From Candidatus Microgenomates bacterium (lineage in GTDB: Bacteria > Patescibacteriota > Microgenomatia > UBA8517), in contig JBEKNE010000001.1 of the NCBI GenBank assembly GCA_049523135.1, positions 717,234-766,412 on the forward strand: 49,179 nt of DNA. Reading direction: 5' to 3'. How positions within the stretch are numbered: the stretch's first letter is position 1; the number at the start of each line of letters is the position of its first letter. Below are positions 13,184 through 49,179 of the stretch, one piece after another. The position numbers were made by a program, and so were the translations under genes. Below the pieces are notes generated by a model. It was given only the letters and a program-made list of their open reading frames with translations, ran no database searches and was not told the origin of the DNA.

Positions 13184-13699
13184 ATGTTACAAAATTCGTT
13201 CGACTCCACCAAAATAAAATTTACACAGTATTTAACCAATCTTGGGATTTCAGAAAAATCACACAAGAATTACAGGTCCGATCTTTCTCACTTCACCGAA
13301 TGGTTAATCCTAAGACTCAGATCAGTTGGCTCCTACGTTGAATCTTTGAGCGAAACTATCCCCTTCCTCAGTACCAATATGGCCAAGGAATATAAAAGCT
13401 TTATGCTTCAAAATAAAATTCCAGCAAAAACAATAAACCGCAGGCTCTCAACCTTGAGGCACCTTTCTAGGTTTTTGGTTTCTTCTCAAACTCTTGATAC
13501 CGACTTCATGAATGACATCGAAAACATCTCTCTTGGCCACAGGCAGAAATCGTCAACGAGCCCGATTATTGAGGATTACCGAAGCTATTTAGAAGCCCAG
13601 AAGGTTTCAAAAAGCACTGTGAAAAATTATGTCAGCGACATCCGCCAATTCCTAGCCTGGGTTGAAACCAACGGTCAAATTATAAATTCAGATAACTAA
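13184..13699 (+). CDS. Protein of tandem tyrosine-recombinase core-binding (phage integrase N-terminal SAM-like) domains, no catalytic domain
   Basis: FTQYLTNLGISEKSHKNYRSDLSHF...TINRRLSTLRHLSRFL, then a second unit YRSYLEAQKVSKSTVKNYVSDIRQFLAW; ends at 171 aa. Confidence 0.8.
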   Translation: MLQNSFDSTKIKFTQYLTNLGISEKSHKNYRSDLSHFTEWLILRLRSVGSYVESLSETIPFLSTNMAKEYKSFMLQNKIPAKTINRRLSTLRHLSRFLVSSQTLDTDFMNDIENISLGHRQKSSTSPIIEDYRSYLEAQKVSKSTVKNYVSDIRQFLAWVETNGQIINSDN

Positions 13700-13704
13700 A
13701 ATTT

Positions 13705-16700
13705 ATGCCTTCCCTACCCAACATATCACCCGAATTAATCCAAGCTTATCAGGATCAGATATCAAAATCCTCTTCGAGCGCAACTGTAAAAAGAAAATCA
13801 ATTGCACTAAATAGGTTTTTTGACTGGGCAGAGGAAGCAGGACATATTCCTCAAAATCCTCTCCAGCAAGTTCAAAGCTTGCAACCGGAAATACAAAGAG
13901 TTTCTAAATCTAAAAGAAAAATTGAAGCCAGCAGCCGGACTTATGCAGTAATCGGACTTACCGTAGCTTTAATTATTTTGCTTTTTCTTCTCACTTGGAA
14001 GCTCAAATTCCCCATTTCTTTCATTCAGAATTTTGCCCAAGTAAATAACACTGGCGAGGTACAAAATGTTGCCCAAAATGTGAGCCCAATTCCCGCAACT
14101 CCTGCGGCAAACCTTGCCTGGAATCTTTACGCCAAGCTGAAATTAACGGATTCCAATGGGATTCCAGAAGTCGGCTCACAATCTTTAAGCTTTAATCTCT
14201 ATAATTCGGAAACCGGAGGTTCTCCCGTTTACACTTCAAGCACCCAGATAGTAACAACTGATACAAATGGATCTGCTTTGATATCGATAGATAATGTCCC
14301 GAGTGATCTTTTCTTCCAAAATAATACGCTTTATCTTGAACCAAACTTTAATAACCAAGGTACTTCAACAGCCAGAATTCCAATTTCTACAGCCAACACA
14401 GCTGCAAATCTGGAAGGCTATTTCCCCGCCAATCCTGAAACCGGAGCGAATTCGGAGGAAATTCCCGTAATCAACTCCGACGGATCACTTCTCTTGGCTA
14501 GTCAATCCCCAATGGTTAAGGCTACTCAGGGAAATCTCCAAATTGAAGGCCAGGCAGTTGTTATTAAAGCTTCCGACGGGTCAGGCGGCAATATCGTAAT
14601 TAATCCGGACGCGAACGGATATGCAAAATTCCTTTTTGAAGGCAACAAAGGTAATTTCTTAAATGCCACAGCAAACAATCTTACAAGTGGATCACTCTAT
14701 TACGGAGTGGTACAAAATAATGCAACCGGATATTACCTTATCAATCTCCAAAGCGGCTCCACTCCGACAACCAAATTTTCAGTTGATTCCGTCGGAAATA
14801 CAAACATTACAGGAGATCTTTCGACAGGTGGAACCGACAGGCTGACGGCTACAGGTTCACTACAAAATATAACAGGTTATTCGCAAACAAGCGGTAACCT
14901 AACGGTCAGCCAAAATGCTGGAGATTATGCCTCAATAACCAAGAATGACACTGCCCTGTCCGATGTAATGGATCTCACTTTAAATGAAAACAATATTGCA
15001 GGATCCCACTACTCCACTTTGGTACTTAACCGCTATGGAGGCGATGACAACTCAAGAGCGCTTCTTGTTAACTCTGGAAACGCTCAGTTTAATGGGCAGG
15101 TTCAGCTTGGAGGATATACTTCTCTTCCGACGGCAATCGGACAAGGCTCACTCGTATTTAATACCTCCGACAGTAAAGTTTATGTCTGGAACGGGACAAG
15201 TTGGGTGGCAGTCGGTTCCGGCGGTGGAGGCGGTCCAAGCTCGTTTGACCAAATAATCTCCGGCACAAATACTTCCGCGACAATGGTTGTAGGTAGTGGG
15301 GCTTCCTTAGGTTTTACGGGGACAGGAACTATTACGGCTTCAGGACTTTCCTGCTCGGGATGCGTCTCCAATAGCCAGCTGACCAACTCCAGCCTTACCA
15401 TTAACACCGGCGGGATTCTAACTGGCGGAGGATCTATAGCTCTCGGCGGGACTTTAAATCTAACCGCAACCGAAGCTGACACTTTAGACTCCGTGACCGG
15501 AAGAGGTGCAACAACAACTAATGCCATAAGTGTTGGGAATTTAACCTCATCGGGTACAACAACTTTTGGAGGTATAGCCTATACATGGCCTGGAAGTCAG
15601 GTTACAAGCGGTTTCCTACAAACAGACGGTAGCGGGGGTCTCTCCTGGACTACCAGTGTCCCGGTTTCATCCATGGCTTTTTCCGGGCTTACATCCGGCA
15701 CAAATACTTCTGCAGCAATGGTGGTTGGAAGTGGAGCAAGTTTAGATTACACAGGAAGCGGAACAATAAATGCCAGTTCCCTTGAAGGAAGTACCTGGGA
15801 ATCCCCCGGAACAATCGGCTTAACCACTCCCAATTCAGGAGCATTCACCATCCTTTCAGCTTCATCTTATGCTACCGTTTCAGGATCTCTCGCTCTCGGA
15901 ACTGCCAACGCCAGTGCAGGTCCGGGAAATCTGGACATGAGTGGAAACTTAGTAGCTGCGGGGAATATTACAGGAACAACTCTTAATGGAACTACGGGAA
16001 TTAATACCGGAGTTGGCGCCGGAACGGCGAGAATCGATTCGACTGGAAACTTAACAAACATCGACACAACTCAATTTAATACTCAAACTTACACATGGCC
16101 GGGAAGTCAGGTTGCAAGTGGGTTCTTGCAAACTGACGGAACTGGTGGTCTTTCCTGGATTACAAGTGTTGCCGCAACCTCAGTCCCCTTCTCAGGAATT
16201 ACGGATGGAACAAATATCTCTGCCTCCATGGTAGTTGGAAATGGAGCTTCACTTAGCTACACAGGAACAGGAACAATTGATGCTTCCTCACTTGAAGGAG
16301 CTACTTGGGAAGCACCCGGAATAATCGGTATTACCACTCCAGCTGGAGGCAACTTCACATCAATTGGGGCAACAACACAAGGAACGGGCGCATTCACTAC
16401 CCTTTCAGCTTCATCCTATGCCACCGTCTCAGGTTCACTTGCTTTGGGATCTTCCAACGCTAGTGCAGGTCCCGGAAACCTGGACATGAGTGGAAACTTA
16501 ACAGTTGGCGGAACTACAACTCTCGGAGGACAAACTTACACTTGGCCAGGAATCGGCGGGACAAATGGTCAGGCTTTGACTACTGACGGAAGTGGAAACC
16601 TTGCCTGGAATGATGTCCTAACCAGTGCCACTGTTTTTTGGACAGAGTTAAACGGATTAATCTATCCAAAAAACTCAAGCGAGGATGTAGCTATTGGTGG

Positions 16701-19700
16701 AAATTCAACCTCAAGTGCCAAGTTTGCATTTACGGGAGTTGACGGAGGCCTTCCAACCGCTTCAATTGCAGGAACTGTAGGCAGCAATGTCGCAACTTAT
16801 TTAACGGGTAATGGAAATCTGGCAACAACAAACATGGCCGACCTGACCCTTGGTGGAAGCTCAACTGGGAATGTAAATATAAACTCAAGAGGATCAAATG
16901 CTTTGATTGCAAACGGAGCCAACTTAACGGCTGGAGGAACCCTTACATTTCCAAATTCAAACACACTAACTGGTGTATCAAGCTATCTCGAACTATCTCA
17001 AGGTGTATCAGTTGGGGCCGGAACAAACTATTACTTCAGTAGCACCGGACTTCTAAATGCATCAAAACTTCAGGTATCAGGAATTGCGGATGTGGTCCAG
17101 GCCTACATAAAAGCCTATTCAACTCAAACAAATCATATTCAGGAATGGCAAAATTCCGGTGGCACTGCCCTTTCGTGGATAGACGGGCAAGGAAATCTAA
17201 GAGTTGGTTCGGGTGCAGTTGATAACGGAAGCCTTCTTGACGTTGCCGGAGCTCCGACAAGTGATGCACTGGCAATCTTTAATACTACCGGAGGTACACA
17301 AAACATCATAGCGGCATCCGCTTCCGGGGCAACAAAAATGACCTTAGACCAAAACGGAGTCTTGAGCCTTTATAATTCGACTTCTTCAATTACCAACACA
17401 GCAGGAGATATAACCATCGGCGCGGCATCAGGAAATATAAATTTCTCCGGAGATACTATTCAAAACATCAACACGGTAAATGCCGGTTCGGGAATATTCA
17501 GCAATGTATTGCAGGTCAATTCAACAGGCGCACTTCAGGCTTATTCAAGATTCGGTAACGGAACAAGCTCCCACGGACTGGTTAGCCCGCAGGATGTTTA
17601 CATAACCGGAAAATTGGATGTAGGCGGAGTTTTTTACCTTTCTTCGAATGAAATCGGAAACGGAACAAACGGAACACCTGCCATAATTCTGTCCTCCGCT
17701 CCTACTACAACTGCAAATACCCTAACAGCAGGTAACTGGCTCGTTGAAAACAATGCCAATTTAGGACAAGCGACACTAATGGTTAACCAAACAATGGGCG
17801 GAGATATTTTTACGGCTTCCGCCTCAGGAACCCCGAAGTTTGTAATAGCCAACAGTGGCAATGTTGGAATTGGAACGGTAAGCCCAACTGCACTTTTGGA
17901 TGTTTCTGCCAATAGCACCAATACTGCTTCCGACTATACCACTCTAAAACTGGAAGGATCACAATCTACTGCCAACACAGGAACATTCTACGGAGAAAAT
18001 ATCATACCAGCATTTACCGCATCATCAGGAAATACTCTGGCAAATCTTAAGGCTTTAGTCTCAAATCCCCAAGTAACAAGCACCGGAACAGTGACCAATG
18101 CTTATAACATCTACTCAAGATTGGACAATACTTCTACAGGAACAATCAGTAATTTATATGATCTATATCTTGCCGCCCCGGGAAACACTAGTGGAACAAT
18201 TACCCATAAATATGCCCTTGTTACAGAAGCGGGTGCCGGTAATGTTGGAATTGGGACAACTAGTCCGGGAGGAGCATTAGATGATGCAGGGGGAAGTCTT
18301 TTCCTTTCCAATGCCACATCCAACCTAATATCTTTTGGAAACTCAGGCGTAGCAGTCCCCGGTGCGGGAAGTGCTGGAGAAAAAATACAATTATTCGGAG
18401 CCACCAGAGGAACAGTTGCAACTGCCGACTATGCTTTAGGTGTACAAAGCTCTAACATGTGGTTCAACACCGATGGTGGTTACATGTTTTACAAAGATGC
18501 TGCCGCAACACCTGAAGTAATATTAGATACAAACGGCAATGTCGGCATTGGAACAACAAGCACGATCACCCCACTCACACTAGGTCAAAATCCATCCGAC
18601 CTGGGTGGTTTGTCGTTTCAGAACACAACTGGCCAAGCAAACTCTCGAAATTGGAATATTAGAGACGATGTTACAGCTTTTGGTGATCTTGCTATTAGAC
18701 AATCTACAACACAAAATGGTACAACTTTCGCCACTAGGTTGACTATAGATCCCAATGGCAATGTTGGAATTGGAGCAACAAGTCCTGCTGCCAATTTGAC
18801 AGTTGCCAAAAATTTTAATACTACCCCAACCGCTCTTACTCCTAGCGCAAGTGTTGCGGTTGATTGTTCATTGGCAAATGTGTTCACCCTGACTCCAGGC
18901 CAAGCCGAATCAATAACTGCATCTAATATGGTTGCTGGCCAGTATGTGGATTTGATTATTCTTACAAGTGGAACAAATTCATACACTCTTACATTTTCAA
19001 CTGGATTTAAAACTCCAAACACAACACTGGCAACAGGAACGGTGACAGGAAAGTATTTTGCAATCCATTATATTTCGAATGGCAGCTATCTGATTGAAAT
19101 TGGACGTACATCAACTCAGACTGCAGTCGGAGCTGATATTGCTGAATGGTATTCTTACGCAGGTGAAAAACCCCAGCCGGGTGAAATTGTTTCTATTTCG
19201 GCAGATAACACTCAAATTGAAAAAACCGATCAAGCGTATAGTCAACAAATATCCGGCGTTGTTTCCACTCAGCCGGCAATAACACTTGGTCAAGAACCAG
19301 ATCAGGGAATCGTTATGGCTTTAACCGGTCGGGTTCCGCTAAAAGTTTCCACTAAGAATGGACAAATTTTGACCGGTGACAGTATTACTTCTTCCACAAT
19401 TGCCGGAGTCGGAATGAAAGCCGTCAAGGCCGGACAAACTGTCGGAAAAGCTTTGGAATCAACCAATAATTGGACCACACAAAGCTGTCCTGCAGTCGCT
19501 TCTCTCGATCAAATTAACTGGCCGGATGATGACGGAACCAATCCTAACCATCCTTGTTTTACACTTTCGGATGGAACAATGATTGGAAAAATTATGGTCT
19601 TTGTTAACCCCTCTTGGTATGATCCGGAAGTTTACCTCACAGACACAGGCAATTTAAAAATTGCCCAGGTCAATGGAAATTACCAACTCACAAACACATC

Positions 19701-20937
19701 AAATAGCAATTCCGTAATTGATACAATCGGAGCTTTCGCTAATGTTGTCGCCGCCAATATCAAAGCCGGAGCAATCACAACAACCGACTTTATAGCTCAA
19801 AATATAACAGCTGGCGCTGTTACAACTCAAAGCTTGGCAACAAATTCATTTACCGCTTTTCAGGGAACTGTTGATAATCTTTTGGTTAAGTCCGGCCTGG
19901 TTGCCTTTAATATTCAGACACAACTTATCTCCCCTGTTCCGGGCCAAACAAATGTTGCAGTCCAAATTGGCTCAGAGGCAACCCCTTCGGGCCAATTTGT
20001 AATACAAAACGCAAGTGGAAGCGCAGTTGCCGCTATCGACAACCTTGGAAATGCCACAATCAGCGGACAACTAACAACAAACGGGGCTTCCGTTTCAGGT
20101 ACACTTTATGCCGATAACATTCAGTCCAAGAGTTTGGATGATATTCAGGCACTTTTGACTCAAGTTGAAACCGATCAAAATACTCTGAAAAACACTGTGA
20201 ATTGGAATAGCCTCACGGCAACAAATTCAGCAAATTTGGATAATTTGGCAGTTTCCGATCTTTATATTACAAACCAGGCAGCTATAAATTCTCTCTCCGT
20301 CACAACCAGCATCGCACTGGGCTCCGATTTGGTAATCGGTTCCGACAATACTATTAATACACTTTCCGCTCCTCTCAAGATCCAGTCCCTTGCCATGGCG
20401 CCTGTTGAAATAATGGACGGACTAGTAACAATAGATACAAAAGGAAACGTAAATATTGCAGGAGATTTGGCAGTTGCAGGGCGAGTTAAAGCCGCAGGGC
20501 TTGATATAACCGCCGCTCAGATGACCGATCCAAACGCCACCACATCCGCTAATTTACTGACCTTGCAGGACGCCAGCGGAAATACCGTTTCGTCAGTTAA
20601 TTCATCAGGAAGTGCCCAGTTTAATTCAATTACCACTCCCCAACTTATTGTTGCGGGATCCGCCGATGCAACGGTTGCAGGAACAATTGTAAATGGAGTA
20701 ATTACGACAAATTCAACAATCGGAACCGCCACTATTCCTGCAGGCACTGCCGATATTACAATCAAGAATCCAAAAATCAGCGACTACACTTTAGTTTATG
20801 TCACCCCGACTTCAGGAACGCAGAATAATGTACTATATGTAAAGGAAAAAGGCACAGGTTACTTCAAGGTTGGTTTTGACCAGGCTATAAACACAGACGT
20901 GAGTTTTAATTGGTGGATAGTACAAGTTTCACAATAA
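13705..20937 (+). CDS. Giant membrane-anchored fibre-like protein: N-terminal recombinase core-binding fragment, TM helix, tail-fibre-like repeats, peptidase G2-like chaperone domain
   Basis: LIQAYQDQI...SSATVKRKSIALNRFFDWAEEAG; TM YAVIGLTVALIILLFLLTW; GNVGIGT repeats; ADIAEWY...GEIVSI...GVVSTQP...ALTGRVPLKV; G/S/T/N-rich. Confidence 0.75.
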   Translation: MPSLPNISPELIQAYQDQISKSSSSATVKRKSIALNRFFDWAEEAGHIPQNPLQQVQSLQPEIQRVSKSKRKIEASSRTYAVIGLTVALIILLFLLTWKLKFPISFIQNFAQVNNTGEVQNVAQNVSPIPATPAANLAWNLYAKLKLTDSNGIPEVGSQSLSFNLYNSETGGSPVYTSSTQIVTTDTNGSALISIDNVPSDLFFQNNTLYLEPNFNNQGTSTARIPISTANTAANLEGYFPANPETGANSEEIPVINSDGSLLLASQSPMVKATQGNLQIEGQAVVIKASDGSGGNIVINPDANGYAKFLFEGNKGNFLNATANNLTSGSLYYGVVQNNATGYYLINLQSGSTPTTKFSVDSVGNTNITGDLSTGGTDRLTATGSLQNITGYSQTSGNLTVSQNAGDYASITKNDTALSDVMDLTLNENNIAGSHYSTLVLNRYGGDDNSRALLVNSGNAQFNGQVQLGGYTSLPTAIGQGSLVFNTSDSKVYVWNGTSWVAVGSGGGGGPSSFDQIISGTNTSATMVVGSGASLGFTGTGTITASGLSCSGCVSNSQLTNSSLTINTGGILTGGGSIALGGTLNLTATEADTLDSVTGRGATTTNAISVGNLTSSGTTTFGGIAYTWPGSQVTSGFLQTDGSGGLSWTTSVPVSSMAFSGLTSGTNTSAAMVVGSGASLDYTGSGTINASSLEGSTWESPGTIGLTTPNSGAFTILSASSYATVSGSLALGTANASAGPGNLDMSGNLVAAGNITGTTLNGTTGINTGVGAGTARIDSTGNLTNIDTTQFNTQTYTWPGSQVASGFLQTDGTGGLSWITSVAATSVPFSGITDGTNISASMVVGNGASLSYTGTGTIDASSLEGATWEAPGIIGITTPAGGNFTSIGATTQGTGAFTTLSASSYATVSGSLALGSSNASAGPGNLDMSGNLTVGGTTTLGGQTYTWPGIGGTNGQALTTDGSGNLAWNDVLTSATVFWTELNGLIYPKNSSEDVAIGGNSTSSAKFAFTGVDGGLPTASIAGTVGSNVATYLTGNGNLATTNMADLTLGGSSTGNVNINSRGSNALIANGANLTAGGTLTFPNSNTLTGVSSYLELSQGVSVGAGTNYYFSSTGLLNASKLQVSGIADVVQAYIKAYSTQTNHIQEWQNSGGTALSWIDGQGNLRVGSGAVDNGSLLDVAGAPTSDALAIFNTTGGTQNIIAASASGATKMTLDQNGVLSLYNSTSSITNTAGDITIGAASGNINFSGDTIQNINTVNAGSGIFSNVLQVNSTGALQAYSRFGNGTSSHGLVSPQDVYITGKLDVGGVFYLSSNEIGNGTNGTPAIILSSAPTTTANTLTAGNWLVENNANLGQATLMVNQTMGGDIFTASASGTPKFVIANSGNVGIGTVSPTALLDVSANSTNTASDYTTLKLEGSQSTANTGTFYGENIIPAFTASSGNTLANLKALVSNPQVTSTGTVTNAYNIYSRLDNTSTGTISNLYDLYLAAPGNTSGTITHKYALVTEAGAGNVGIGTTSPGGALDDAGGSLFLSNATSNLISFGNSGVAVPGAGSAGEKIQLFGATRGTVATADYALGVQSSNMWFNTDGGYMFYKDAAATPEVILDTNGNVGIGTTSTITPLTLGQNPSDLGGLSFQNTTGQANSRNWNIRDDVTAFGDLAIRQSTTQNGTTFATRLTIDPNGNVGIGATSPAANLTVAKNFNTTPTALTPSASVAVDCSLANVFTLTPGQAESITASNMVAGQYVDLIILTSGTNSYTLTFSTGFKTPNTTLATGTVTGKYFAIHYISNGSYLIEIGRTSTQTAVGADIAEWYSYAGEKPQPGEIVSISADNTQIEKTDQAYSQQISGVVSTQPAITLGQEPDQGIVMALTGRVPLKVSTKNGQILTGDSITSSTIAGVGMKAVKAGQTVGKALESTNNWTTQSCPAVASLDQINWPDDDGTNPNHPCFTLSDGTMIGKIMVFVNPSWYDPEVYLTDTGNLKIAQVNGNYQLTNTSNSNSVIDTIGAFANVVAANIKAGAITTTDFIAQNITAGAVTTQSLATNSFTAFQGTVDNLLVKSGLVAFNIQTQLISPVPGQTNVAVQIGSEATPSGQFVIQNASGSAVAAIDNLGNATISGQLTTNGASVSGTLYADNIQSKSLDDIQALLTQVETDQNTLKNTVNWNSLTATNSANLDNLAVSDLYITNQAAINSLSVTTSIALGSDLVIGSDNTINTLSAPLKIQSLAMAPVEIMDGLVTIDTKGNVNIAGDLAVAGRVKAAGLDITAAQMTDPNATTSANLLTLQDASGNTVSSVNSSGSAQFNSITTPQLIVAGSADATVAGTIVNGVITTNSTIGTATIPAGTADITIKNPKISDYTLVYVTPTSGTQNNVLYVKEKGTGYFKVGFDQAINTDVSFNWWIVQVSQ
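15255..16620 (+). repeat. Internal tandem modules (~150-180 aa) in the giant protein
   Basis: GTN(T/I)SA.MVVG.GASL at ~15260, ~15695, ~16205; YTWPG at ~15580, ~16090, ~16537; SAGPGNLDMSGNL at ~15915 and ~16465. Confidence 0.85.
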
Positions 20938-20938
20938 G

Positions 20939-23900
20939 ATGTTAAAGAAATTTGACAAACAAACTGTCTTTTTAATTCTGGGGGTAATTATTCTATTTAT
21001 AACAGGAGGACTGTTTATTGTTTATAAACATCTCTCTTCTACTTCCCAACCGATAAATAATACAAAATATATCTTTTTGGACAACCCAACTACTTACAAA
21101 GGAGTTTTAGGCCTCTCATTCCCCATTAACACGACCATTGTTAAAAGCGGAGATATATATCAAAACACTACCAACCGCTTTAAAACTTATTTTAAATCCA
21201 GTCCAACATTAGAAAACAGTATTACTTTTAAAAATGACACCTCCCAGATTTCTTTTTACACTCCAGTTAGTCAAAGTTTTGGACAGCTGCAAAATCCAAC
21301 TCCGTCCGTAAATAGAAACGTCTTAACTTACCCGAATATATTTCCGTCTTTGGACCTCCAATACACGATTAGTTCTTCAAGACTACTTGAGGAATTTGTT
21401 GTTAAAGACAAGGAGACTGCTTTGAAAATCTTAGATATTAATCAAAGTGTGTCACTTACCAATGTTGACAAATATACAAAAGAGCCAGACGGTTCAATTA
21501 CTTTCTATTCAAAGGGTAATCCCACATTTATAATCCCCCAACCCGTTCTTTATGAGCAGGAAAACCGTGACATAATATCTCACGGCATTGAGTACCAAGT
21601 CACCGAAACTGGCAAAAATAACCTTCAAATAACCAAAAAAATTACTCAAGAAGGCGCTGATTGGCTTGCTGACCCCAAAAGAAAGTACCCTATTGTCATC
21701 GATCTTGTTATTGACAATTGCACTAACGATGCCAACACCACATGGATAAGTTCAGATACTACCCACACCACTCTTTCCAATTCATCTTCTATCTACCACT
21801 CGCCCAGTACTGGCTCTATCCAAGTAGCGGTCGTTGGTTCTATTGGAACAGGAGCTGACGGTAACTGTATTATGAACAATGGTACCAAGACCTTGGACAG
21901 TACTGTAGGTTCTTCCGTATGCAACAGTAGCTCAAGAACCACTGCATATGCCGTTAATTTTTCAGTTACCACCACTGCAAGTGCAGGCGCCACGTCCGTC
22001 ACTGTTTCCTCTACCCCAAACGGTCTTCTGGCCGGTGATGAATTTCTTATTATCAATCTTCAGGGAACTTCTGGAAATTACAGTTCTGTCGGTCAATACG
22101 AAACTCATACTATTTCTTCTATTTCCACAAATACTCTTAACTTCACTGACACTCCCCTTTTAAATACATATGACGGTACCACTCAAAAAATAATGGTTCA
22201 AAGAGTCCCAAATTTTGGGAATGTTACCATTTGCGGTGGAAACACAGGAGGTGGTTGCACAGCCGCTGCCACTTTAACCACTAGTGCATGGAATGGCACA
22301 AAAAATGGAGTGTTGTTTTTCACATCAAACGGAACAATTAACGTTAACTCAGGAGGGGTTATTACTGCTAACGCCCTTGGGTATCAGGGAGGCACTGGAA
22401 AAGGTCAAGTTAATGGAATAGGACCTCAAGGATATTCACGTCTCCCGGGAGGAAGTATTTCTCAAAGTGCCAACGATGGCGGAGGCGGTGGAGGACAAGA
22501 TAGCAGCCTTGGCGCAGGTGGCAGTGGTGGAGGCGGATACGGAACTGCTGGATCTACTGGGGGAGTGGGCGGCTCAGGAAGTGGTCCTGGAACCGGCGGC
22601 AGTGCCTACGGCTCCGACTTCCCCAGTAGACTTTACTTAGGTTCTGGTGCAGGAGGGGCAGCCGATACCGGAGGAAACGGTGGAGGTATTATCGCAGTCT
22701 ATGCTGTTACATTTACTTCCACTGGTTCTGCAACCTCAAATGGGGGTGGTGGTCATTCTGAATCCAATTGGTCAGGCAGCGGTGGGGGTTCAGGAGGCAG
22801 TATATCAATCTCAGCATCTTCAGTAACAGCAGGTACTATTACTGTTTCGGGGGGTTCCGGAGGTAGTGGATATAAAGGCAGCAATGGTGGAAACGGCGGA
22901 AGTGGGAGATCAACTACCTCGCCCACTCTACCAGCTCTTAATGACACAGTTACTTTAACCGAAGATTCAACGGTGGATCTTTCAGGAGTTAAATATATCA
23001 CCTTCTGGGTATATTCGGGGACAACCGGCAGTTTTGCCCAATTTCAATTCGGTCAAAGTTCAAGCTCGGAAAATACGGATCCTTTTACAATTAATGTAGC
23101 CAACCAATGGCAGGAAGTAACGTGGGATATTTCAGGCTTGGCACCAACAAGAAGCGCCATTAAATATTTCGCCTTTAAAATTACTAGCAATCCCAACCAA
23201 TTGACTTTTTACTTTGATGATATCGAATCCAATACCATACCGGTCGCCCCCACCCTTGGTCCTCCTTCCAATAATACTCAACACCTGTTGCCATCATCAC
23301 AGACACTTTCAATGAACTCAACTGATGCTGATGGCGACTACTTAATGTACAAGGTTTTAATTTGTACTACTTCCGATATGACAACTTCCTGCCTAGCGGG
23401 ATCTCCGTTTGATGAAACATCGTCCCAAACGGGATGGAGTAACCAAAATTATCCTACAGGCGGTCCTTATACTGCATATACTTCCGGAACAACAGCAGTA
23501 TTCACTCCTACCCTGAGCCCTGGTACCACCTATTACTGGGAAGCTTGGGCAATCGATCCTGGAGGAACTGATTTATGGAGTACAGTGAGTGCAAAGTATT
23601 CTTTTACTACAAATGCTGTGCCAAATATCCCATCTACCCCGGTTTCTCCTAACGGTGTTACCGGCCAGGCACTTTTACCGACTTTTACAACAACCACCTC
23701 CGATCCTGATGGGGATAGTATCAAATACAGGATTAAACTCTGCACCGACAATTCGATGGGTGTAACAGGTACATGCTATACAGCCGATCAAACAACAACA
23801 CCAACCGGCTGGAGTAACGGCAGTAGCCCATACTCTTCCGGAACGTCAGGTGTTTACACACTCCAAGCTTCCTTGGTTACCCTAAATGCAGGCACTACTT

Positions 23901-25072
23901 ATTATTGGGAATCATCAGCAATAGACCCAGCAGGAAGCAATACTTGGGGCAGTTATCAGGCCTCACCCTACTCTTTTACTACAAGCCAGATACCAAATAT
24001 TCCCTCTCTCGATTCACCCGCAAACGGAGCAACCCTGACTTCTACTCCAATTATTCTCAAAACCACAGGAACTGACAATGACAATGATTATTTAATGTAC
24101 AAAATTAGGATTTGCACAGATCAAGCAATGAGTTCCTGCTTGACGGGTTCTCCATTCGATGAAACATCATCTCAAACAGGATGGAGTAATCAAAATGCCA
24201 ACGGCGGTACTGCATATACTTCCAATTCCCCCGATCAACAGGCATGGTACACCCTTCCGTCAAGTGTTCTGTCCCAATTGCAACCCGGCACTATCTACTA
24301 TTGGGATTCATATGCGGAGGATCCGAAAGAATATATCAGTAGTATCTGGACGGCAGGAACCGGTTTATGGGGCAGTACCCAGACCATACCCTATTCATTT
24401 ACCATGGGGCAACCTAATGTTCCATCTGCCCTGCAAGTTGATGGAACTACGGACCCAACTTCCTTAACTGATCAGACTCCCAATTTTACGGCAATCTGCA
24501 ACTCGGGCAACTCCGGTGATACTTTCAATAAATATGAAATTATTGTATCTACCAGTCCAACTTTTAGCTCAACTACCTATGATTCCGGTTCCTCAGGAAC
24601 TTCAATGGCAAGCTGTACCGCAGGTTCAAGATCCTCAAACCTTGCCTATGTTGGAACTCTTGGCCTTGACGGAACAGTATATTATTGGAAAATCAGATTT
24701 TTTGACACGGGAGGATCCGGTACGTGGTCAAACTGGTCAACTGAACTAGCTACTTTTAAAATGTCATCTTCATATGACAACACCCCGTTAACTTGTTCCG
24801 CCGGAACTCTAGGGGCACAAGACTCATCAATTATGGTTCAATGGACCGACTCCGCCGGCGTAACCGCCTTTGAACTCCAAAGAAGTACGGATGGTGGAAA
24901 CACTTTTTCTGATCTTGCCGGTTATTCCGGAAGCGGAACCAACTATACTGATTCGACCACTTCTTCCGGTAATATTTATGAATATAGAGTTAAGGCTACT
25001 TCCGGAGGGGGTTCCGGTTGGTGTACAACAGGACTTGTCAGTTTACAAAGAGGTGTGTTTCAATTCAGATGA
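20939..25072 (+). CDS. Large surface protein A: signal anchor, WapA/RHS-type N-terminal domain, Gly-rich insert, CBM-like domain, FnIII/Ig-like repeats
   Basis: TM at N-terminus; WLADPKRKYPIVID; GGGG-rich block; KYITFWVY...FYFDDI; three ...GTTYYW...AIDP repeats; C-terminal FnIII-like unit. Confidence 0.75.
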   Translation: MLKKFDKQTVFLILGVIILFITGGLFIVYKHLSSTSQPINNTKYIFLDNPTTYKGVLGLSFPINTTIVKSGDIYQNTTNRFKTYFKSSPTLENSITFKNDTSQISFYTPVSQSFGQLQNPTPSVNRNVLTYPNIFPSLDLQYTISSSRLLEEFVVKDKETALKILDINQSVSLTNVDKYTKEPDGSITFYSKGNPTFIIPQPVLYEQENRDIISHGIEYQVTETGKNNLQITKKITQEGADWLADPKRKYPIVIDLVIDNCTNDANTTWISSDTTHTTLSNSSSIYHSPSTGSIQVAVVGSIGTGADGNCIMNNGTKTLDSTVGSSVCNSSSRTTAYAVNFSVTTTASAGATSVTVSSTPNGLLAGDEFLIINLQGTSGNYSSVGQYETHTISSISTNTLNFTDTPLLNTYDGTTQKIMVQRVPNFGNVTICGGNTGGGCTAAATLTTSAWNGTKNGVLFFTSNGTINVNSGGVITANALGYQGGTGKGQVNGIGPQGYSRLPGGSISQSANDGGGGGGQDSSLGAGGSGGGGYGTAGSTGGVGGSGSGPGTGGSAYGSDFPSRLYLGSGAGGAADTGGNGGGIIAVYAVTFTSTGSATSNGGGGHSESNWSGSGGGSGGSISISASSVTAGTITVSGGSGGSGYKGSNGGNGGSGRSTTSPTLPALNDTVTLTEDSTVDLSGVKYITFWVYSGTTGSFAQFQFGQSSSSENTDPFTINVANQWQEVTWDISGLAPTRSAIKYFAFKITSNPNQLTFYFDDIESNTIPVAPTLGPPSNNTQHLLPSSQTLSMNSTDADGDYLMYKVLICTTSDMTTSCLAGSPFDETSSQTGWSNQNYPTGGPYTAYTSGTTAVFTPTLSPGTTYYWEAWAIDPGGTDLWSTVSAKYSFTTNAVPNIPSTPVSPNGVTGQALLPTFTTTTSDPDGDSIKYRIKLCTDNSMGVTGTCYTADQTTTPTGWSNGSSPYSSGTSGVYTLQASLVTLNAGTTYYWESSAIDPAGSNTWGSYQASPYSFTTSQIPNIPSLDSPANGATLTSTPIILKTTGTDNDNDYLMYKIRICTDQAMSSCLTGSPFDETSSQTGWSNQNANGGTAYTSNSPDQQAWYTLPSSVLSQLQPGTIYYWDSYAEDPKEYISSIWTAGTGLWGSTQTIPYSFTMGQPNVPSALQVDGTTDPTSLTDQTPNFTAICNSGNSGDTFNKYEIIVSTSPTFSSTTYDSGSSGTSMASCTAGSRSSNLAYVGTLGLDGTVYYWKIRFFDTGGSGTWSNWSTELATFKMSSSYDNTPLTCSAGTLGAQDSSIMVQWTDSAGVTAFELQRSTDGGNTFSDLAGYSGSGTNYTDSTTSSGNIYEYRVKATSGGGSGWCTTGLVSLQRGVFQFR

Positions 25073-28000
25073 AAAACAAATTTATATATATTGTCGGTTT
25101 GATTGCTATTTCGGCAGTGGTGGTGTTTTTAGGTTTTTTTGCCATTAAAAAGATTATTTCTTCCACTCCTTCAAATTCCGGCAAATATATCTTTTTGGAC
25201 AACCCAACTACTTATAAAGGGGTTTTAGGTCTCTCATTCCCTATTAACACAACTATTGTTAAAAGCGGTGACACATATCAAAATACCACTAACCGTTTTA
25301 AAACTTATTTTAAAAGCGACCCAACCATTAAAGATGGTATTACTTTCAAAAATGACACTTCTCAAATTTCTTTTTACACTCCGGTTAATCAGAGTTTTGG
25401 ACAACTGCAAAGTACAACTCCTCATACCAAAGGCAGTACTATTACTTATTCAAACATTTTTTCTTCACTTGATCTTAGGTACACCGTTTCGCCCACAAGG
25501 CTTCTTGAGGAATTCGTAGTTAATGACAGGCAGACTGCCGAAAAAATTCTTTCCTTAAATCAGGAAGTAACCCTAACTAATGTAGATAATTATGTACAGC
25601 AAGCCGGAAGTATAAACTTTTTCAAAAACGGCAAAATAACCTTTTCTCTCCCCCAACCGGTTCTTTACGAGCAGGAAAACAGGGATATCCGTTCAAATGG
25701 AATTGAATATCAAATTACGGGAAAAGATAAAAATAATCTTGAGGTTACTAAAAAAATTACTCAAGAAGGTGCTGACTGGCTCGCCGACCCGACCCGCCAA
25801 TATCCTATTGTTATAGATCTTGTAATTGACAATGCAGATACTGCAAGTAACTGGGTAAGCTCAGACCCAAGCGGTCTTACGGTTTCCCAGGAAAATTCCA
25901 TCATACACGAAGGCACAGGTTCGGTTAAACTGACAGCCGGAGGTATTAGTACCGGAACGGGAGCTGATGGAAATATTACTGTTGATTCCAGTCACAGCAC
26001 GCCACCAACTTATACTATTAATGCATACAATTATATTACAGGCCGTTCGTGTGCAGACGGCGGTGACGCGGTCAATTATTCCGTTACAGCACTAACTTCA
26101 ACCTCTGCAACAGTTACCGGAGGCGGTGGGACTAATGGAGGACCGGCAACAGGCTGTCTTGCCACAGGAGATGAAATTCTACTCATTAATCTTCAAGGTA
26201 CTTCGACTGCATATACGAACGTGGGCAATTATGAAACGTTAAGAGTATCTTCTATTACTTCCGGAAACATAATCAATTTTACAACCGCAAAAACAAATTA
26301 CTATGGTAACGGAGCAACGGATGATACAAACATTGGCACCAGTTCAAGTAATCAAAGAGTCATGCTCCAAAGAGTCCCAAATTACAACAACGTTACAGTT
26401 AATACGGGGGTCATTTTTTATCCTACTGCATGGAATGGCACAAAAGGAGGTGTCATGGCCTTCAGAGCCAGCGGTACTGTTACTGTTACTGGAACGATAA
26501 GTGCAACAGGTTATGGATATAGAGGTGGTACAGCACCTGCAAGTCATGGTGGACCAGCAGGAGAATCTTTCTGTGGAAACCCGGGAGGAGGGAATGGTGG
26601 TTCTTACGGAGGACCATATGAAGGTGGAAATGGCACATGCGGTGGAGGTGGGGGTGAGTCGACAGGTGGAAACGGCACAATTGCAACAGGTTCAGCGACA
26701 GGAGGGGCGGGAGGTGGAGGCGGAGATGGAGCAGGAAGCACTTATGCCGGAGGAGGAGCAGGAGGCGGCGGAGGATATGGATCCCCCGGAGTACACGGAA
26801 ATGGCGGTAACGTAGTAGCTACTGATGGTTCAACCAACCACAGCGGAAATGGTGGTCTTGCTAGCAATGATGGTGGTGGTGGAGGTGGTGGTGGAAGCTT
26901 TGGATCCACAAATCTATCAACCCTATTTTTAGGTTCCGGAGCTGGTGCCGGGGCGGTTGGTGGCGGCAGCGCGGGCAGAGGAGGAAACGGTGGCGGAATT
27001 ATCCTCATTTTTGCCAATAATTTAAGCGTCACGACAGGTATAACTTCCAATGGAGGCAACGGTGGAAATGGAGGCGGTAGTAGCTCCGCCTTCTTTGGTG
27101 GAGCTGGTGGAGGAGGGTCGGGTGGGTCAATAAAAATTATTGGGAATACTCTTACTATTGGTTCAAGTAAAGTTTCTGCCACCGGCGGTTCAGGTGGAAC
27201 AACTGCAAGCAATAGTGGAGCCGGAGGTGCCGGTGGATCAGGAATTACCGCCATGTTTTATTCATCTCTCTCAGGAAGCACATCTTCACCTACCCCGGCA
27301 TACAATACTTATCCTTATGCCCTCAATGATACAGTCACTTTGACTAAGAGTGTAAATCTCTCCACAGTTAAATATATTACTTTTTGGGTTTACTCAAACC
27401 AAGCAAGTCAGGCAATGAGATTTGAGTTCGGGCAAAGTATAAATTCAGAGCAAACTTATGATTTTACTACCGGTTCGGCAGGTGCATGGCATCAAGTGCA
27501 ATGGGATATTTCGGGTATTAGTACTGGATCCAGAAGTGCTGTCCAATATTTTGCTTTCAAAGTTACAAATATCAGTAATGCCACCACCGTGATTTATTTT
27601 GATGATATTGAGGATAATTCCCCCCCCAATGCTCCCAGTATTGGCCCGCCAGGTAATGCTGCTACCGATCAAATTCTGTCGCCAACATTTACCACAAGTA
27701 CTACGGATGTTGATGGAGATACTGTAAAATATGAGATTGCGATTTGTGCCAACTCCGACATGGTAACCGGCTGTATATCGGGGTCTCCGTTTAGCCAAAC
27801 CTTGTCCCCCACTGGTTGGAGTAATGGCAGTACGCCTTACGCTTCCGGAGCGACAGCAACTTATATACTACAAACAACTCTTAATCCCGGAACTACTTAT
27901 TACTGGCGGTCACAGGCAATTGATCCGGGAGGAAGCGGTATATATGGTGCCTGGAGTTCTACCTATTCTTTCACCACCAGTTATGTACCGGGTGCTCCCA

Positions 28001-29046
28001 CTCTTAATTATCCGAGTAATGGAGCTAATGGTTGGCCACAAGCGCCTGCCGTTTCAATGCATGCAACTGACGCGGACAGTGATTACTTAAGATACCAAGT
28101 TGCAATTTGTACAACATCCGACATGTCAACCTCTTGTATTTCGGGTTCTCCTTTTACGGAGCCCTCAGGTTCACCCCAAACCGGTTGGACCGGGCAGGAT
28201 GCACAGAGTAGTACCGCATATGCTTCCACTCCCAGTTCGGGAACACCATTTGTTTTTTCCCCCACTCTTGCGGCAGGGACCACATACTACTGGCAGGCAA
28301 GGGCAATTGATCCGGGCGGAAGCAATACTTATGGTTCCTGGAGTTCAACTTATACTTTCACCATGGGACAAATAAATGTCCCCTATTCTTTGCAGGTTGA
28401 CGGATCCGTGAATCCACCCGCACTTACTGATCAGACTCCGAACTTTACGGCAATTTGTAGTTCCGCCAATTCCGGCGATACTTTTAATCAATATCAGATC
28501 CAAGTTTCCACTAACCCAAGTTTCAGTTCAACTGTTTACGATTCCGGAGGTGGAGGAACTTCCATGGCCAGTTGTACTGCAGGTTCAAGATCTTCAAACC
28601 TTGCCTATGTTGGCACTCTTGCTCTTGATGGAACAACTTATTATTGGAGGGTAAAACTTTATGATTCAACCTCGGCATCTTGGTCGGGTTGGTCAACCGA
28701 ATTTGCCACCTTTAAAATGAATTCCGCTTATAACGGAACCCCCACCAGCTGCAGACTTATGCAGGCCGCCGATGGAAGTTCCCTTACCCTACTTTGGACT
28801 GATATGACCTCCAATGAAACCGGGTTTGAAATCCAGAAAAATGTAGGTAACACAACTTTTTCACCTCTCATAACAACAGCGGCCAATGTTACAAGTTACT
28901 CCGACCCGACAGCTACGAGTACTACCTACCAATATAGAGTCAGGGCGGATTTTGCTTCCGGAAGCCCGACCGATTGGTGCACAACAACAATAACCAATTT
29001 AACAAAGGGGACATTGCAAATGCAGGGAGTAATCTTAAGTAATTAG
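25069..29046 (+). CDS. Large surface protein B, paralogue of protein A
   Basis: Same architecture; start moved to ATG 25069 (ATGA overlap with stop of A); 44/45 identical residues in the N-terminal block. Confidence 0.78.
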   Translation: MKNKFIYIVGLIAISAVVVFLGFFAIKKIISSTPSNSGKYIFLDNPTTYKGVLGLSFPINTTIVKSGDTYQNTTNRFKTYFKSDPTIKDGITFKNDTSQISFYTPVNQSFGQLQSTTPHTKGSTITYSNIFSSLDLRYTVSPTRLLEEFVVNDRQTAEKILSLNQEVTLTNVDNYVQQAGSINFFKNGKITFSLPQPVLYEQENRDIRSNGIEYQITGKDKNNLEVTKKITQEGADWLADPTRQYPIVIDLVIDNADTASNWVSSDPSGLTVSQENSIIHEGTGSVKLTAGGISTGTGADGNITVDSSHSTPPTYTINAYNYITGRSCADGGDAVNYSVTALTSTSATVTGGGGTNGGPATGCLATGDEILLINLQGTSTAYTNVGNYETLRVSSITSGNIINFTTAKTNYYGNGATDDTNIGTSSSNQRVMLQRVPNYNNVTVNTGVIFYPTAWNGTKGGVMAFRASGTVTVTGTISATGYGYRGGTAPASHGGPAGESFCGNPGGGNGGSYGGPYEGGNGTCGGGGGESTGGNGTIATGSATGGAGGGGGDGAGSTYAGGGAGGGGGYGSPGVHGNGGNVVATDGSTNHSGNGGLASNDGGGGGGGGSFGSTNLSTLFLGSGAGAGAVGGGSAGRGGNGGGIILIFANNLSVTTGITSNGGNGGNGGGSSSAFFGGAGGGGSGGSIKIIGNTLTIGSSKVSATGGSGGTTASNSGAGGAGGSGITAMFYSSLSGSTSSPTPAYNTYPYALNDTVTLTKSVNLSTVKYITFWVYSNQASQAMRFEFGQSINSEQTYDFTTGSAGAWHQVQWDISGISTGSRSAVQYFAFKVTNISNATTVIYFDDIEDNSPPNAPSIGPPGNAATDQILSPTFTTSTTDVDGDTVKYEIAICANSDMVTGCISGSPFSQTLSPTGWSNGSTPYASGATATYILQTTLNPGTTYYWRSQAIDPGGSGIYGAWSSTYSFTTSYVPGAPTLNYPSNGANGWPQAPAVSMHATDADSDYLRYQVAICTTSDMSTSCISGSPFTEPSGSPQTGWTGQDAQSSTAYASTPSSGTPFVFSPTLAAGTTYYWQARAIDPGGSNTYGSWSSTYTFTMGQINVPYSLQVDGSVNPPALTDQTPNFTAICSSANSGDTFNQYQIQVSTNPSFSSTVYDSGGGGTSMASCTAGSRSSNLAYVGTLALDGTTYYWRVKLYDSTSASWSGWSTEFATFKMNSAYNGTPTSCRLMQAADGSSLTLLWTDMTSNETGFEIQKNVGNTTFSPLITTAANVTSYSDPTATSTTYQYRVRADFASGSPTDWCTTTITNLTKGTLQMQGVILSN

Positions 29047-29137: not shown

Positions 29138-31066
29138 ATGCAGATAGCTAACCTGTTCCAAAAAATCGAAAAATACTTACTGTTTATAGGAGTATCTTTA
29201 TTTGCCGTTTTCGTTTTTCCCCGATTCCCGTCGCCATACATCGTACCAAAAGAAATTTTTGCTGCAGTCATCATTTCACTTGTCTTAATTCTCTGTTCGG
29301 TCAGGTCAATTATCAAAGGCGAATCCCCTCTTTTCATCGGAAAATTTGATTTGGGAGTAGCACTCTTCGCTTTGGTTTATATCTTAGCCGCGGCTTTTAT
29401 GACTCCCAACAAAATGGAGGCCTTCTTCTACCCCGGAACCGTAACTTTTGTAATCATTTCGGTCCTCTTTTATTTCCTAATTAATCAGCTGGATAAAAAA
29501 GGAAAAGATTTAATACTTATCGGGATTTTTGCCTCCGGAATTTTTCTTTCCATCTCAATTCTTTTTACGGAACTTGGACTTTTTGCAAAAATTCCGTTTC
29601 TCCCTTCTTTTATTAAAGATTCCGGTTTCAATGCTCTTGGCAACTGGCTCCCGTCCGTAATTTACCTAACCGCCTTACTTCCCATTGGAATTGGTTTAAT
29701 TATTAAGGATAAAGACATTGTCAAAAGAATATTTTACGGAGTCGCTTCCACAGTAATTGTGTTTGGTCTTGTGGTTGCTGTGGTTACAATCCTACCCGGA
29801 AAGGCACAATCTCCCATTCTCCCGGATATACAAACTTCGTGGGAGGTTGCCGTAGAAACTCTAAAGGTTAGCCCGATCTTGGGAATAGGAACCGGGAACT
29901 ATCTAACAGCCTTTAATCTTTACAGATCGGTTTCTTACAATATGACAAATCTCTGGCAAATAAGATTTTCATCCTCCGATAACTTCTATTTCACTTTGCT
30001 TACCGAAGCCGGATTTGCAGGACTTGCCGCGCTGATCATACTAATGATTGAAATTTACAACAAATTCAAAACCGATCTTACAAAGAAATATTGGGAAGAA
30101 ATCTCGGTAATCGTAATTTTCGTTTTATTCCTCGTTTTTCCGTCCGCTTCGGCACTTCTCTTCCTCCTGATGGTTCTTTTGGCTATCTTTTCAGGATCGG
30201 AGGAAAAGAAGATAAATATTGCCATGAGTAGAATTCCTTCCGCAATTGTCACAATTCCCGTTTTTCTCGGTATAATTGCCCTCGGATTTTTCGGAACTAA
30301 AGCAGTAGCCGCCGAGATAACCTACGAAAGGTCCCTTGTTGCCCTAACCAATAATGACGCAAAAGGAACTTATACTCTAATGACACAGGCTGTTACCCAA
30401 AATCCTTATGTTGACAGGTATCACGCTTCCCTTGCTCAAGTTGATATGGCTCTTGCCACCTCAATTGCCAGTAACCAAAATCTCACTGATACCGACCGCT
30501 CAACAATTACCCAACTTATTCAGCAAGCCATAAATGAAGGCAAGGCAAACGTAACCCTTAACCCGGAAAGATCCGGAAACTGGGAATCTTTGGGGCAAAT
30601 TTATCGAAGCATAATGTCTTTTGCACAGGGTGCCGACCAATTCACAATTCAAGCCTTTATCCAAGCCATTGCTCTTGACCCGACAAATCCTAACCTCAGA
30701 ATTGAACTTGGCGGAGCCTACTATGCCCTCGGAAGATATAGCGATGCAATCGATTCTTTCAAATTGGCAACTCTTGCTAAAAGCGATCTTGCCAATGCTT
30801 ATTACAACCTTGCAATTGCTTATCGCGAAAATAAGGATTATGACAATGCGATAACGGCAATGAATACAGTATTAACTCTGGTTGATAAAAACTCTTCCGA
30901 TTACACTCTGGCCAAAAGCACACTGGACAATTTGCAAAAGAATAAGCCGGTTACAACAACCAGTAGCACTCAGGGAAATCTGACAACTCCCGAAAAGCAA
31001 ACAACAACAGTCAAACCTCCTCTTACACTACCTTCCGAGGCAACTCCTCCAGCCACAAATCAATAA
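29138..31066 (+). CDS. O-antigen ligase/O-oligosaccharyltransferase-like multi-TM protein with C-terminal TPRs
   Basis: ~12 TM segments; PILGIGTGNY...NFYFTLLTEAGFAGL Wzy_C-like signature; TPR-like repeats (AIALDPTNPNLRIELGGAYYALGRY). Confidence 0.82.
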   Translation: MQIANLFQKIEKYLLFIGVSLFAVFVFPRFPSPYIVPKEIFAAVIISLVLILCSVRSIIKGESPLFIGKFDLGVALFALVYILAAAFMTPNKMEAFFYPGTVTFVIISVLFYFLINQLDKKGKDLILIGIFASGIFLSISILFTELGLFAKIPFLPSFIKDSGFNALGNWLPSVIYLTALLPIGIGLIIKDKDIVKRIFYGVASTVIVFGLVVAVVTILPGKAQSPILPDIQTSWEVAVETLKVSPILGIGTGNYLTAFNLYRSVSYNMTNLWQIRFSSSDNFYFTLLTEAGFAGLAALIILMIEIYNKFKTDLTKKYWEEISVIVIFVLFLVFPSASALLFLLMVLLAIFSGSEEKKINIAMSRIPSAIVTIPVFLGIIALGFFGTKAVAAEITYERSLVALTNNDAKGTYTLMTQAVTQNPYVDRYHASLAQVDMALATSIASNQNLTDTDRSTITQLIQQAINEGKANVTLNPERSGNWESLGQIYRSIMSFAQGADQFTIQAFIQAIALDPTNPNLRIELGGAYYALGRYSDAIDSFKLATLAKSDLANAYYNLAIAYRENKDYDNAITAMNTVLTLVDKNSSDYTLAKSTLDNLQKNKPVTTTSSTQGNLTTPEKQTTTVKPPLTLPSEATPPATNQ

Positions 31067-33818: not shown

Positions 33819-33917
33819 ACATTTAATATGAATTAATATGAATTTTAAGTCAAGGGTCAGTACTATTGTTGTAAAAAGGCATTGATTGAAGTACTGGTTT
33901 GTATTAAATTGTTCTTA

Positions 33918-47582: not shown

Positions 47583-47700
47583 TTCTGGCGGTGACATATT
47601 TTCGCGGTCAGTTGCCCGACAACTATCGTCTGCGCTAAAGCGTTTTACTTCTGTGTTCGGAATGGGAACAGGTAGTGCCACTTCGCACTAACCACCAGAA
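47583..47700 (-). rRNA. rrf: 5S rRNA
   Basis: TTCTGGTGG/CCGCCAGAA terminal helix, CCCATTCCGAACAC signature. Confidence 0.93.
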
Positions 47701-48728: not shown

Positions 48729-49060
48729 TATTATTGTTAACTCATAATCGCTTATGAGATCCGACTATATCTTAACCGTCAAAATTATTTAACGGTTTCT
48801 GACATATAGTCTGTGAGGATTTCCTTCGATTCTTTTTCAAATCGCTCAGGATCTTTCCTGCTGATTGACCGCACTTGATGCTTTGTCACTCTTACGAGTA
48901 GCACAAGATTCACCGGTGTTTCCAGCATTTAGTCAGATTTATTACCAACTGGAGTTGGTATCTTATAACTAACAGAGAATTACCTTCATTTAAATATAAA
49001 TGAATTCAAAACGTGTATAAGAACGACAGCTCGAATGAACTACATATATCTTATAGTTTT
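48729..49060 (-). mobile_element. ORF-less group I intron after U2604 (E. coli numbering)
   Basis: P1 GACAGU/GCUGUC with U:G, R CACAGACTA (48815-48807), S AAGATATAGTCGG (48773-48761), P9 with GCGA loop; 332 nt. Confidence 0.9.
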
Positions 49061-49094
<34 letters not shown>

Positions 49095-49179
49095 TCACTT
49101 TAACGGGCGAACAGACCGACCCTTGGCACCTTCTTCAGCGCCAGGATGTGATGAGCCGACATCGAGGTAGCGAACCGCG

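Follow-up and report, generated by a model that had tools for sequence, protein, structure and literature searches.

A core-binding-type domain encoded across two adjacent genes at the inner end of giant membrane-anchored proteins in Microgenomates

We analysed a stretch of 49,179 nucleotides, here called the window, from contig JBEKNE010000001.1 (positions 717,234 to 766,412, forward strand) of the Candidatus Microgenomates bacterium assembly GCA_049523135.1. Its genes and RNAs, a group I intron in the 23S rRNA among them, and the related contigs place it in the Patescibacteria (candidate phyla radiation), Microgenomates/Woesebacteria. Two adjacent open reading frames (ORFs) on its forward strand, gene 1 (13184-13699) and gene 2 (13705-20937), each encode one half of the same core-binding (CB) domain, the DNA-binding-type domain of tyrosine recombinases. 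Comparison with relatives shows that the encoding of one CB-type domain across two adjacent cistrons is old, widespread and selected. We interpret the locus as a natural two-cistron split of a membrane-anchored tandem CB module whose halves reassemble, and we put the probability of this interpretation at about 0.75.

The two halves of unit 2

Gene 1 encodes a soluble protein of 171 aa without a transmembrane segment, and leuS lies upstream of it on the opposite strand. Its residues 12-100 (13217..13483, forward strand) make up a complete SAM-like CB domain, unit 1, which is delimited by AlphaFold2 (AF2) helices and by a Pfam match to Phage_int_SAM_1 (PF02899; profile positions 3-81 of 83, 57.2 bits, E = 2.1e-15). 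Further along, residues 126-163 (13559..13672, forward strand; ...KVSKSTVKNYVSDIRQFLAWVET) supply helices A' and B', the first half of a second unit, and in the Pfam search residues 129-161 cover just positions 2-34 of the 85 in the profile Phage_int_SAM_4 (PF13495). The break point follows (13673..13704, forward strand), consisting of the variable tail of gene 1 (NGQIINSDN), its TAA stop codon at 13697-13699 and a 5-nt spacer, AATTT. Both the ORF list and the sequence place the start of gene 2 after this 5-nt gap and in a frame different from that of gene 1.

Gene 2 encodes a bitopic membrane protein of 2410 aa. For the beginning of this gene (13705-14000, the codons for residues 1-98), the initial annotation had described a match to the second half of a core-binding domain, a basic stretch and one transmembrane helix with the N-terminus inside, and all three were found there. 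Residues 3-45 (13711..13839, forward strand; SLPNISPELIQAYQDQISKSSSSATVKRKSIALNRFFDWAEEA) supply helices C' and D', the second half of unit 2, and cover just positions 39-82 of the 83 in PF02899 (Pfam). They are followed by a basic juxtamembrane stretch at residues 64-78 (13894..13938, forward strand; QRVSKSKRKIEASSR), which contains six K/R and one D/E, and by the single transmembrane helix at residues 79-97 (13939..13995, forward strand; TYAVIGLTVALIILLFLLT), the sole 19-residue window with a Kyte-Doolittle mean above 1.6 in the whole protein. With six K/R in the 15 residues before the helix and two in the 15 after it, the flanking charges obey the positive-inside rule, and an N-in topology therefore fits; the N-terminus of the gene 2 protein is predicted to lie in the cytoplasm.

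Beyond the helix, the predicted extracytoplasmic region (13996..20934, forward strand) extends for ~2,300 aa, of which T, G, S, A and N account for 56% and K and R for 2.7%. The region had no sequence match in Pfam, PHROGs or the PDB and contains no tandem DNA repeats, and the ectodomains of gene 2 orthologues gave weak or faint matches to Gly_rich_2 and PTL_trimer only. Its composition, together with these weak matches in orthologues, suggests that the ectodomain may be a fibre.

The initial annotation had also proposed that the second unit of the upstream protein stops after its first half and that both halves are parts of a single core-binding domain. A chimera of gene 1 residues 121-171 and gene 2 residues 1-62 bears this out, giving one unbroken match to PF02899 over profile positions 1-82 of 83 (43.6 bits, E = 3.6e-11). 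When the halves were searched separately, gene 1 scored 26.0 bits (profile positions 1-40) and gene 2 scored 20.2 bits (positions 39-82, E = 7e-4). Such near-additive scores and abutting profile coordinates are expected for one domain cut mid-way. By itself the gene 2 half falls below the PF02899 gathering cut-off of 22.3, which is exceeded both by unit 1 and by the joined unit 2. With hidden Markov models (HMMs) of the two halves, also used to classify relatives, half A of gene 1 scored 66.0 bits and half B of gene 2 scored 63.5 bits.

We also ran AF2 on the joined gene 1 and gene 2 sequences as a single covalent chain. Without an alignment, the mean predicted local distance difference test score (pLDDT) of the joined sequence was 53.8, which is uninformative; with an alignment in which 145 gene 1 homologues were combined with three naturally fused proteins, the mean pLDDT of the joined chain was 88. 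Unit 1 was modelled as helices 8-19, 24-47, 55-61, 64-76 and 81-100 (pLDDT 95-98). In unit 2, helices 126-138 and 143-163 come from gene 1 (pLDDT 93-97), and the helices at chimera residues 180-193 and 196-215 come from gene 2 (pLDDT 92-96). The break, at chimera position 171/172, falls inside the loop 164-179, where pLDDT is 63-71 and drops below 50 at residues 167-169. Because it lies between helices 143-163 and 180-193 of the model, both fragments retain whole secondary-structure elements. The top PDB matches returned by Foldseek were the CB domains of recombinases (Brujita integrase 5vfz, lambda Int 2oxo/1z19, XerD 1a0p and VchIntIA), together with isolated integrase N-domains (e.g., 3nrw, with a target-normalised TM-score of 0.77).

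Relatives of gene 1 carry public names such as 'site-specific recombinase XerD' and 'site-specific integrase'. A tyrosine recombinase combines a core-binding domain with a catalytic domain that bears R-K-H-R-H/W and a tyrosine nucleophile; the former is present here and the latter is not. Neither gene 1 nor gene 2 had a Pfam match to the recombinase catalytic domain (PF00589) at E ≤ 1, and the NCBIfam scores of gene 1 were 49 bits for XerC against a cut-off of 335 and 45 bits for XerD against 330. The public names are misleading because neither protein has a catalytic domain, and, judged from their sequences, the gene 1 and gene 2 proteins are not recombinases. Conserved positions are found in the CB part itself: K147, N148, Y149 and D152 of gene 1 are among several positions invariant in 22 relatives, and the basic residues that open helices B and D are among the best conserved.

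Split and fused relatives

An identical 171-aa gene 1 product is recorded on nine contigs, so the gene 1 stop codon is reproducible. The protein database contains 262 homologues of gene 1, and the best 120 of these 262 are all 154-181 aa long; within this family, then, the second unit is normally truncated. These homologues came from a word-index search, in which giant proteins are seemingly beyond the reach of the index and the absence of long matches says nothing about fusions; gene 2 residues 1-130 returned zero matches in it, not even gene 2's own protein. When gene 2 residues 1-110 were searched exhaustively against 1.84 billion representative proteins, 120 of these matched at E ≤ 0.001. 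Ninety-seven of the 120 gene 2-side matches open with the half-domain, at residues 1-8, and many are giant proteins of up to 5818 aa. In a protein of 6824 aa (P0195), which may consist of a very long series of SAM-like repeats, the gene 2 half-domain was matched in 26 separate stretches.

A scan of one genome per species, together with metagenome contigs, yielded 157 further loci, which we classified with the half-A and half-B HMMs. Ninety-two non-redundant Microgenomates loci are split, and in all of them the break falls in the same loop of unit 2. The two ORFs are mostly separated by 3-9 nt, within a range from a 25-nt overlap to +15 nt; at a few loci, a small unrelated gene lies between the two. 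Relative to gene 1, gene 2 lies in frame 0, 1 or 2 at 34, 30 and 28 loci, respectively. The gene 1 stop codon is TAA at 79 of the 92 loci and is sometimes doubled (as in L010), and every gene 2 has its own ATG, located right before a conserved LPxIS motif. The gene 2 half-domain follows gene 1 at all loci with sufficient downstream sequence; the half-B match is missing at four loci, all of which stop at a contig edge.

In contigs of relatives, gene 1 is directly followed by a giant gene. A closed Woesebacteria genome (L001) encodes proteins of 170 aa and 2271 aa, and another locus (L004) encodes proteins of 171 aa and at least 1990 aa, both with the same leuS-linked synteny as the window. Sixteen complete gene 2 ORFs were found, spanning 531-3026 aa.

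More distant relatives, with ~25-32% identity, occur at Roizmanbacteria-type and other loci (L038, L039, L045, L066, L069, L073 and L076). In these relatives, too, gene 1 ends in a hairpin resembling the first half and the next large gene opens with a hairpin resembling the second half, with spacers from an 8-nt overlap to ~330 nt; the HMMs detect these sequences only partly. Judging from such relatives, a break at this position may be of greater age, or may have arisen recurrently.

Mean pairwise identities, calculated among the 72 split sequences of the module alignment, were 0.56 for half A (gene 1) and 0.52 for half B (gene 2). The values for the first and second halves of the intact unit 1 were 0.60 and 0.56, those for the inter-unit linker, the gene 1 tail and the region after the domain 0.36, 0.20 and 0.20. 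Thus, neither half is decaying, and the conservation of both is on a par with that of unit 1. In both hairpins, the conserved residues of the fused forms are also still present.

A search for fused orthologues had been set beforehand as a test of the idea that the two halves complement each other in trans at the membrane; such orthologues exist, which supports the idea. At 36 loci an open frame runs straight through the unit 2 domain to give one polypeptide, and three fused proteins (P0121, P0122 and P0123) are present in the protein database. The automatic classification had called 47 loci fused, of which 11 were dropped, the HMM having picked unit 1 in place of unit 2. Seven of the fused loci (L117, L120, L121, L122, L132, L154 and L028) are 48-56% identical to gene 1, and most Collierbacteria-type loci are fused, with proteins of, for example, 2086 aa (L050) and 3038 aa (L063). 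The layout of the fused proteins is CB unit 1, linker, CB unit 2, basic segment, one transmembrane helix (N-in) and giant ectodomain, and the helix order A-B-C-D is constant. In close fused relatives, a short loop (for example, ...HFLTFHPSLSLLTTES...) takes the place of the gene 1 tail, the stop codon, the spacer and the 'MPxLPxIS' head of gene 2. One of the database proteins, P0122, is 54% identical, has the same leuS-linked synteny, and begins its ectodomain with residues identical to those of gene 2. The heading of the initial annotation, which spoke of a single polypeptide with a DNA-binding-like domain, is thus accurate for the fused relatives; at the locus in the window, the membrane chain has half a domain.

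In a neighbour-joining tree of 105 modules, 26 fused modules lie in an outer clade, and fused modules are also nested in a mostly split clade. The tree, which is crude, requires at least six changes between the split and fused states. It indicates repeated fission and fusion at the unit 2 loop, which would make both the split and the fused form workable and, it appears, interchangeable.

Two further features of fused loci were observed. P0122 itself is just 432 aa long (L164, 10001-13696) and is followed by four short ORFs, with a Y1 transposase gene a few kb downstream; the giant ectodomain gene of this locus looks degraded. In Collierbacteria-type loci (L050, L051, L052, L060, L062, L063 and L065), the gene after the fused giant ORF encodes a protein of ~200-220 aa whose N-terminus is of prepilin type (GFTL[ST/A]E, then a hydrophobic helix).

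Proposed assembly and alternative explanations

In this lineage, the gene is cut within the B'-C' loop of unit 2. Gene 1 yields a soluble protein with unit 1 and the A'B' hairpin, and gene 2 yields the C'D' hairpin, to which the membrane anchor and the surface region of 2,300 aa are attached. Two helices taken out of a four-helix bundle leave their hydrophobic core exposed and seldom fold on their own; stable folding of such a hairpin is therefore expected to need a partner. In the assembly that we propose, the A'B' and C'D' hairpins would most likely associate in trans by fragment complementation and pack as one four-helix bundle, so that the gene 1 product would dock on the surface protein's cytoplasmic tail and restore the tandem CB module seen in fused relatives. 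A gap of just 5 nt points to co-transcription of the two genes and to coupling of their translation, which would favour a 1:1 supply of the two chains.

What the assembled module might do is a separate question. Our preferred guess is that it binds nucleic acid at the membrane, a role favoured by homology and by the conserved basic residues that start helices B and D. We would give DNA binding itself somewhat less than an even chance, and a role as a protein adaptor is nearly as likely. It is conceivable, though we think it rather unlikely, that the split serves as a switch. The gene 1 product would then be a releasable CB-type nucleic-acid-binding subunit that docks on the tail of the surface protein by complementation of the half-domains. 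The state of the 2,300-aa outside region, for example contact with a host cell, would thereby determine whether DNA, or a factor bound to it, is tethered at the membrane or set free. If so, these tiny episymbiont-type cells would have a contact-sensing link from membrane to chromosome, derived from the DNA-binding domain of a recombinase without the enzyme.

Several observations weigh against reassembly of the halves. Covariation, calculated as mutual information with average product correction on 105 joined or fused sequences, placed only one inter-half pair among the top 60 where 4.3 were expected; the intrachain control within unit 1 was likewise without signal (3 against 3.3 expected), which points to low power. 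The AF2 chain was covalent and only four alignment rows extended over the gene 2 half, and the model thus speaks for structural compatibility, not for affinity. The Foldseek E-values are weak (the best is 0.014, and none is ≤0.001), although the match probabilities are 0.99-1.00. In addition, gene 1 and gene 2 lie far apart at four loci (L021, L029, L036 and L128), with another small gene between them in at least the first three, so tight translational coupling is not obligatory. The spacers at these loci measure 404-651 nt (L021, 2858-3263; L029, 10468-10879; L036, 10489-11141; L128, 2977-3389), with a small ORF in those of L021, L029 and L036 and 411 nt in that of L128. The spacer ORF of L021 and L029 resembles a four-helix-bundle protein of the type found in rRNA intervening sequences.

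Two explanations would make the break trivial or only apparent. It is exceedingly improbable that the two ORFs are one gene interrupted by a frameshift error of sequencing or assembly, or one that a mutation has recently turned into a pseudogene. ORFs that lie 5 nt apart in different frames could look like the product of such an event, and the fused relative L164 precedes a visibly degraded giant gene; however, the 171-aa product recurs on nine contigs, the best 120 homologues are of 154-181 aa, and a break common to 92 independent loci separates halves that are as conserved as the intact unit. Moreover, stop codons stand at 13693-13695 in the gene 2 frame and at 13697-13699 in the gene 1 frame, and therefore only nucleotide 13696 could fuse the frames by a single-base change. 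We also consider it very improbable that recoding, by a programmed frameshift or stop readthrough, yields one fused polypeptide. The very short spacing would suit such a mechanism, and a single fused chain is evidently functional in the fused orthologues, yet the frame offsets of 34, 30 and 28 loci, the spacers of -25 to +15 nt and the whole gene inserted in a few loci are hard to reconcile with it, as are TAA stops at 79 of 92 loci, some of them doubled, and a gene 2 that always has its own ATG. The junction in the window (GAT AAC TAA AAT TTA TG) contains no slippery heptamer. Taken together, the conserved break, the frame offsets and the spacers exclude sequencing error, recent pseudogene formation, frameshift and readthrough, all of which are contradicted by the comparative data.

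Other explanations accept two real genes and dispute that their products meet. The gene 1 and gene 2 proteins could be independent products that form no stable complex, gene 1 being a free CB-type binder of DNA or protein, perhaps a regulator of the operon, and the gene 2 hairpin a targeting or juxtamembrane element. In favour of this, unit 1 is complete and could act alone, the inserted genes loosen the coupling, and no covariation signal connects the halves. We nevertheless find this unlikely: a lone hairpin rarely folds, both hairpins keep the residues of the fused form, gene 1 and gene 2 co-occur at every testable locus, and relatives have switched repeatedly between the split and fused states. 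A different kind of contact is implied if pairing is homotypic, with B:B contacts dimerising the giant protein and A:A contacts dimerising gene 1 through a weak A-B/C-D pseudo-repeat. The half-B HMM does match half-A regions weakly (17.9 bits in the window and 13-20 in many loci), and both halves align to overlapping parts of a PHROGs integrase profile. But the Pfam positions of the halves are essentially separate (1-40 and 39-82), the order A-B-C-D is fixed in fused orthologues, and AF2 models the A'B'C'D' bundle with high confidence, which leaves homotypic pairing distinctly improbable. Reassembly of the two hairpins into one CB domain is thus the interpretation that we retain.

Related systems and the wider window

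The units described here share family and fold with the CB domains of tyrosine recombinases (XerC/XerD, lambda Int, Cre and integron integrases; PF02899/PF13495). They differ from these enzymes in that a catalytic domain is absent and the CB domains occur in tandem, are tethered to a transmembrane helix and a giant ectodomain, and are divided over two chains. Naturally split genes whose products reassemble include the split genes of Nanoarchaeum equitans, the split DnaE inteins and the cyanobacterial RpoC1/RpoC2. The locus resembles these in having two ORFs for one gene, fused 'Rosetta stone' orthologues, a break in a surface loop and selection on both parts. It differs in that the break does not separate domains but cuts through a compact one of ~85 residues, the ORFs are adjacent (with gaps of usually 3-9 nt), close relatives alternate between split and fused forms, and no splicing chemistry is involved.

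Two kinds of membrane protein have a comparable layout. Regulators of the ToxR/CadC type are bitopic, membrane-bound DNA-binding proteins with a cytoplasmic N-terminal winged helix of the OmpR type, one transmembrane segment and an extracytoplasmic C-terminal domain. The locus is like them in layout only, with a DNA-binding-type N-terminus inside, a single transmembrane helix and a C-terminal domain outside. Its inside domain is of the CB/SAM-like type, its outside part is a repeat-poor, T/G/S-rich region of 2,300 aa as opposed to a small sensor, and no target DNA is known; within the cytoplasmic part, Pfam gave matches to SAM-like families only and none to an OmpR-type winged helix. RodZ has a cytoplasmic helix-turn-helix, a basic juxtamembrane segment, one transmembrane helix and a periplasmic domain, and its DNA-binding-type fold binds MreB. 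The locus shares with RodZ the bitopic layout and the basic juxtamembrane stretch, whereas the domains are unrelated and RodZ is neither split nor equipped with a giant ectodomain. Since the RodZ fold binds MreB, DNA is not the only conceivable ligand of the inside domain at this locus. A full-text literature search found no published description of membrane-anchored proteins with CB domains only, or of this split, which is no proof of novelty.

A whole family of small Patescibacteria proteins annotated as 'XerD' or 'site-specific integrase' are not recombinases; on the reading that we favour, they would probably be the detachable inner subunit of giant surface proteins. The giant surface proteins of Microgenomates would thereby gain a candidate cytoplasmic partner, and the biology of the candidate phyla radiation the hypothesis of a DNA-binding-type module at the inner end of the fibre. 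For protein science, the locus offers a natural compact four-helix domain that occurs as one chain or as two, a ready system for the study of fragment complementation and of gene fission and fusion.

Downstream of gene 2, on the forward strand, lie two paralogous genes (20939-25072 and 25018-29046) for proteins of ~1,350 aa, each anchored by a transmembrane segment and each with an Ig_Rha78A_N match near its C-terminus. They sit between the giant gene and a gene (29138-31066, forward strand) for a 642-aa polytopic membrane protein with a weak, O-antigen-ligase-like Wzy_C match and TPR repeats. A Wzy_C/TPR protein is also encoded downstream of the giant gene in the closed Woesebacteria genome (L001, 17509-19431), and a protein of this kind may glycosylate the T/S-rich ectodomain. 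Further downstream (33882-37463, forward strand), a GGDEF diguanylate cyclase domain (135 bits) is found in a protein of 1193 aa that has an N-terminal transmembrane helix and an outside region rich in Cys. Near the end of the window, a 5S rRNA is located at 47583-47699, and a group I intron (48741-49007; Rfam, 92 bits) interrupts a 23S rRNA fragment (49043-49179, reverse strand), with a LAGLIDADG-type ORF of 171 aa (48109-48624, reverse strand) next to the intron.

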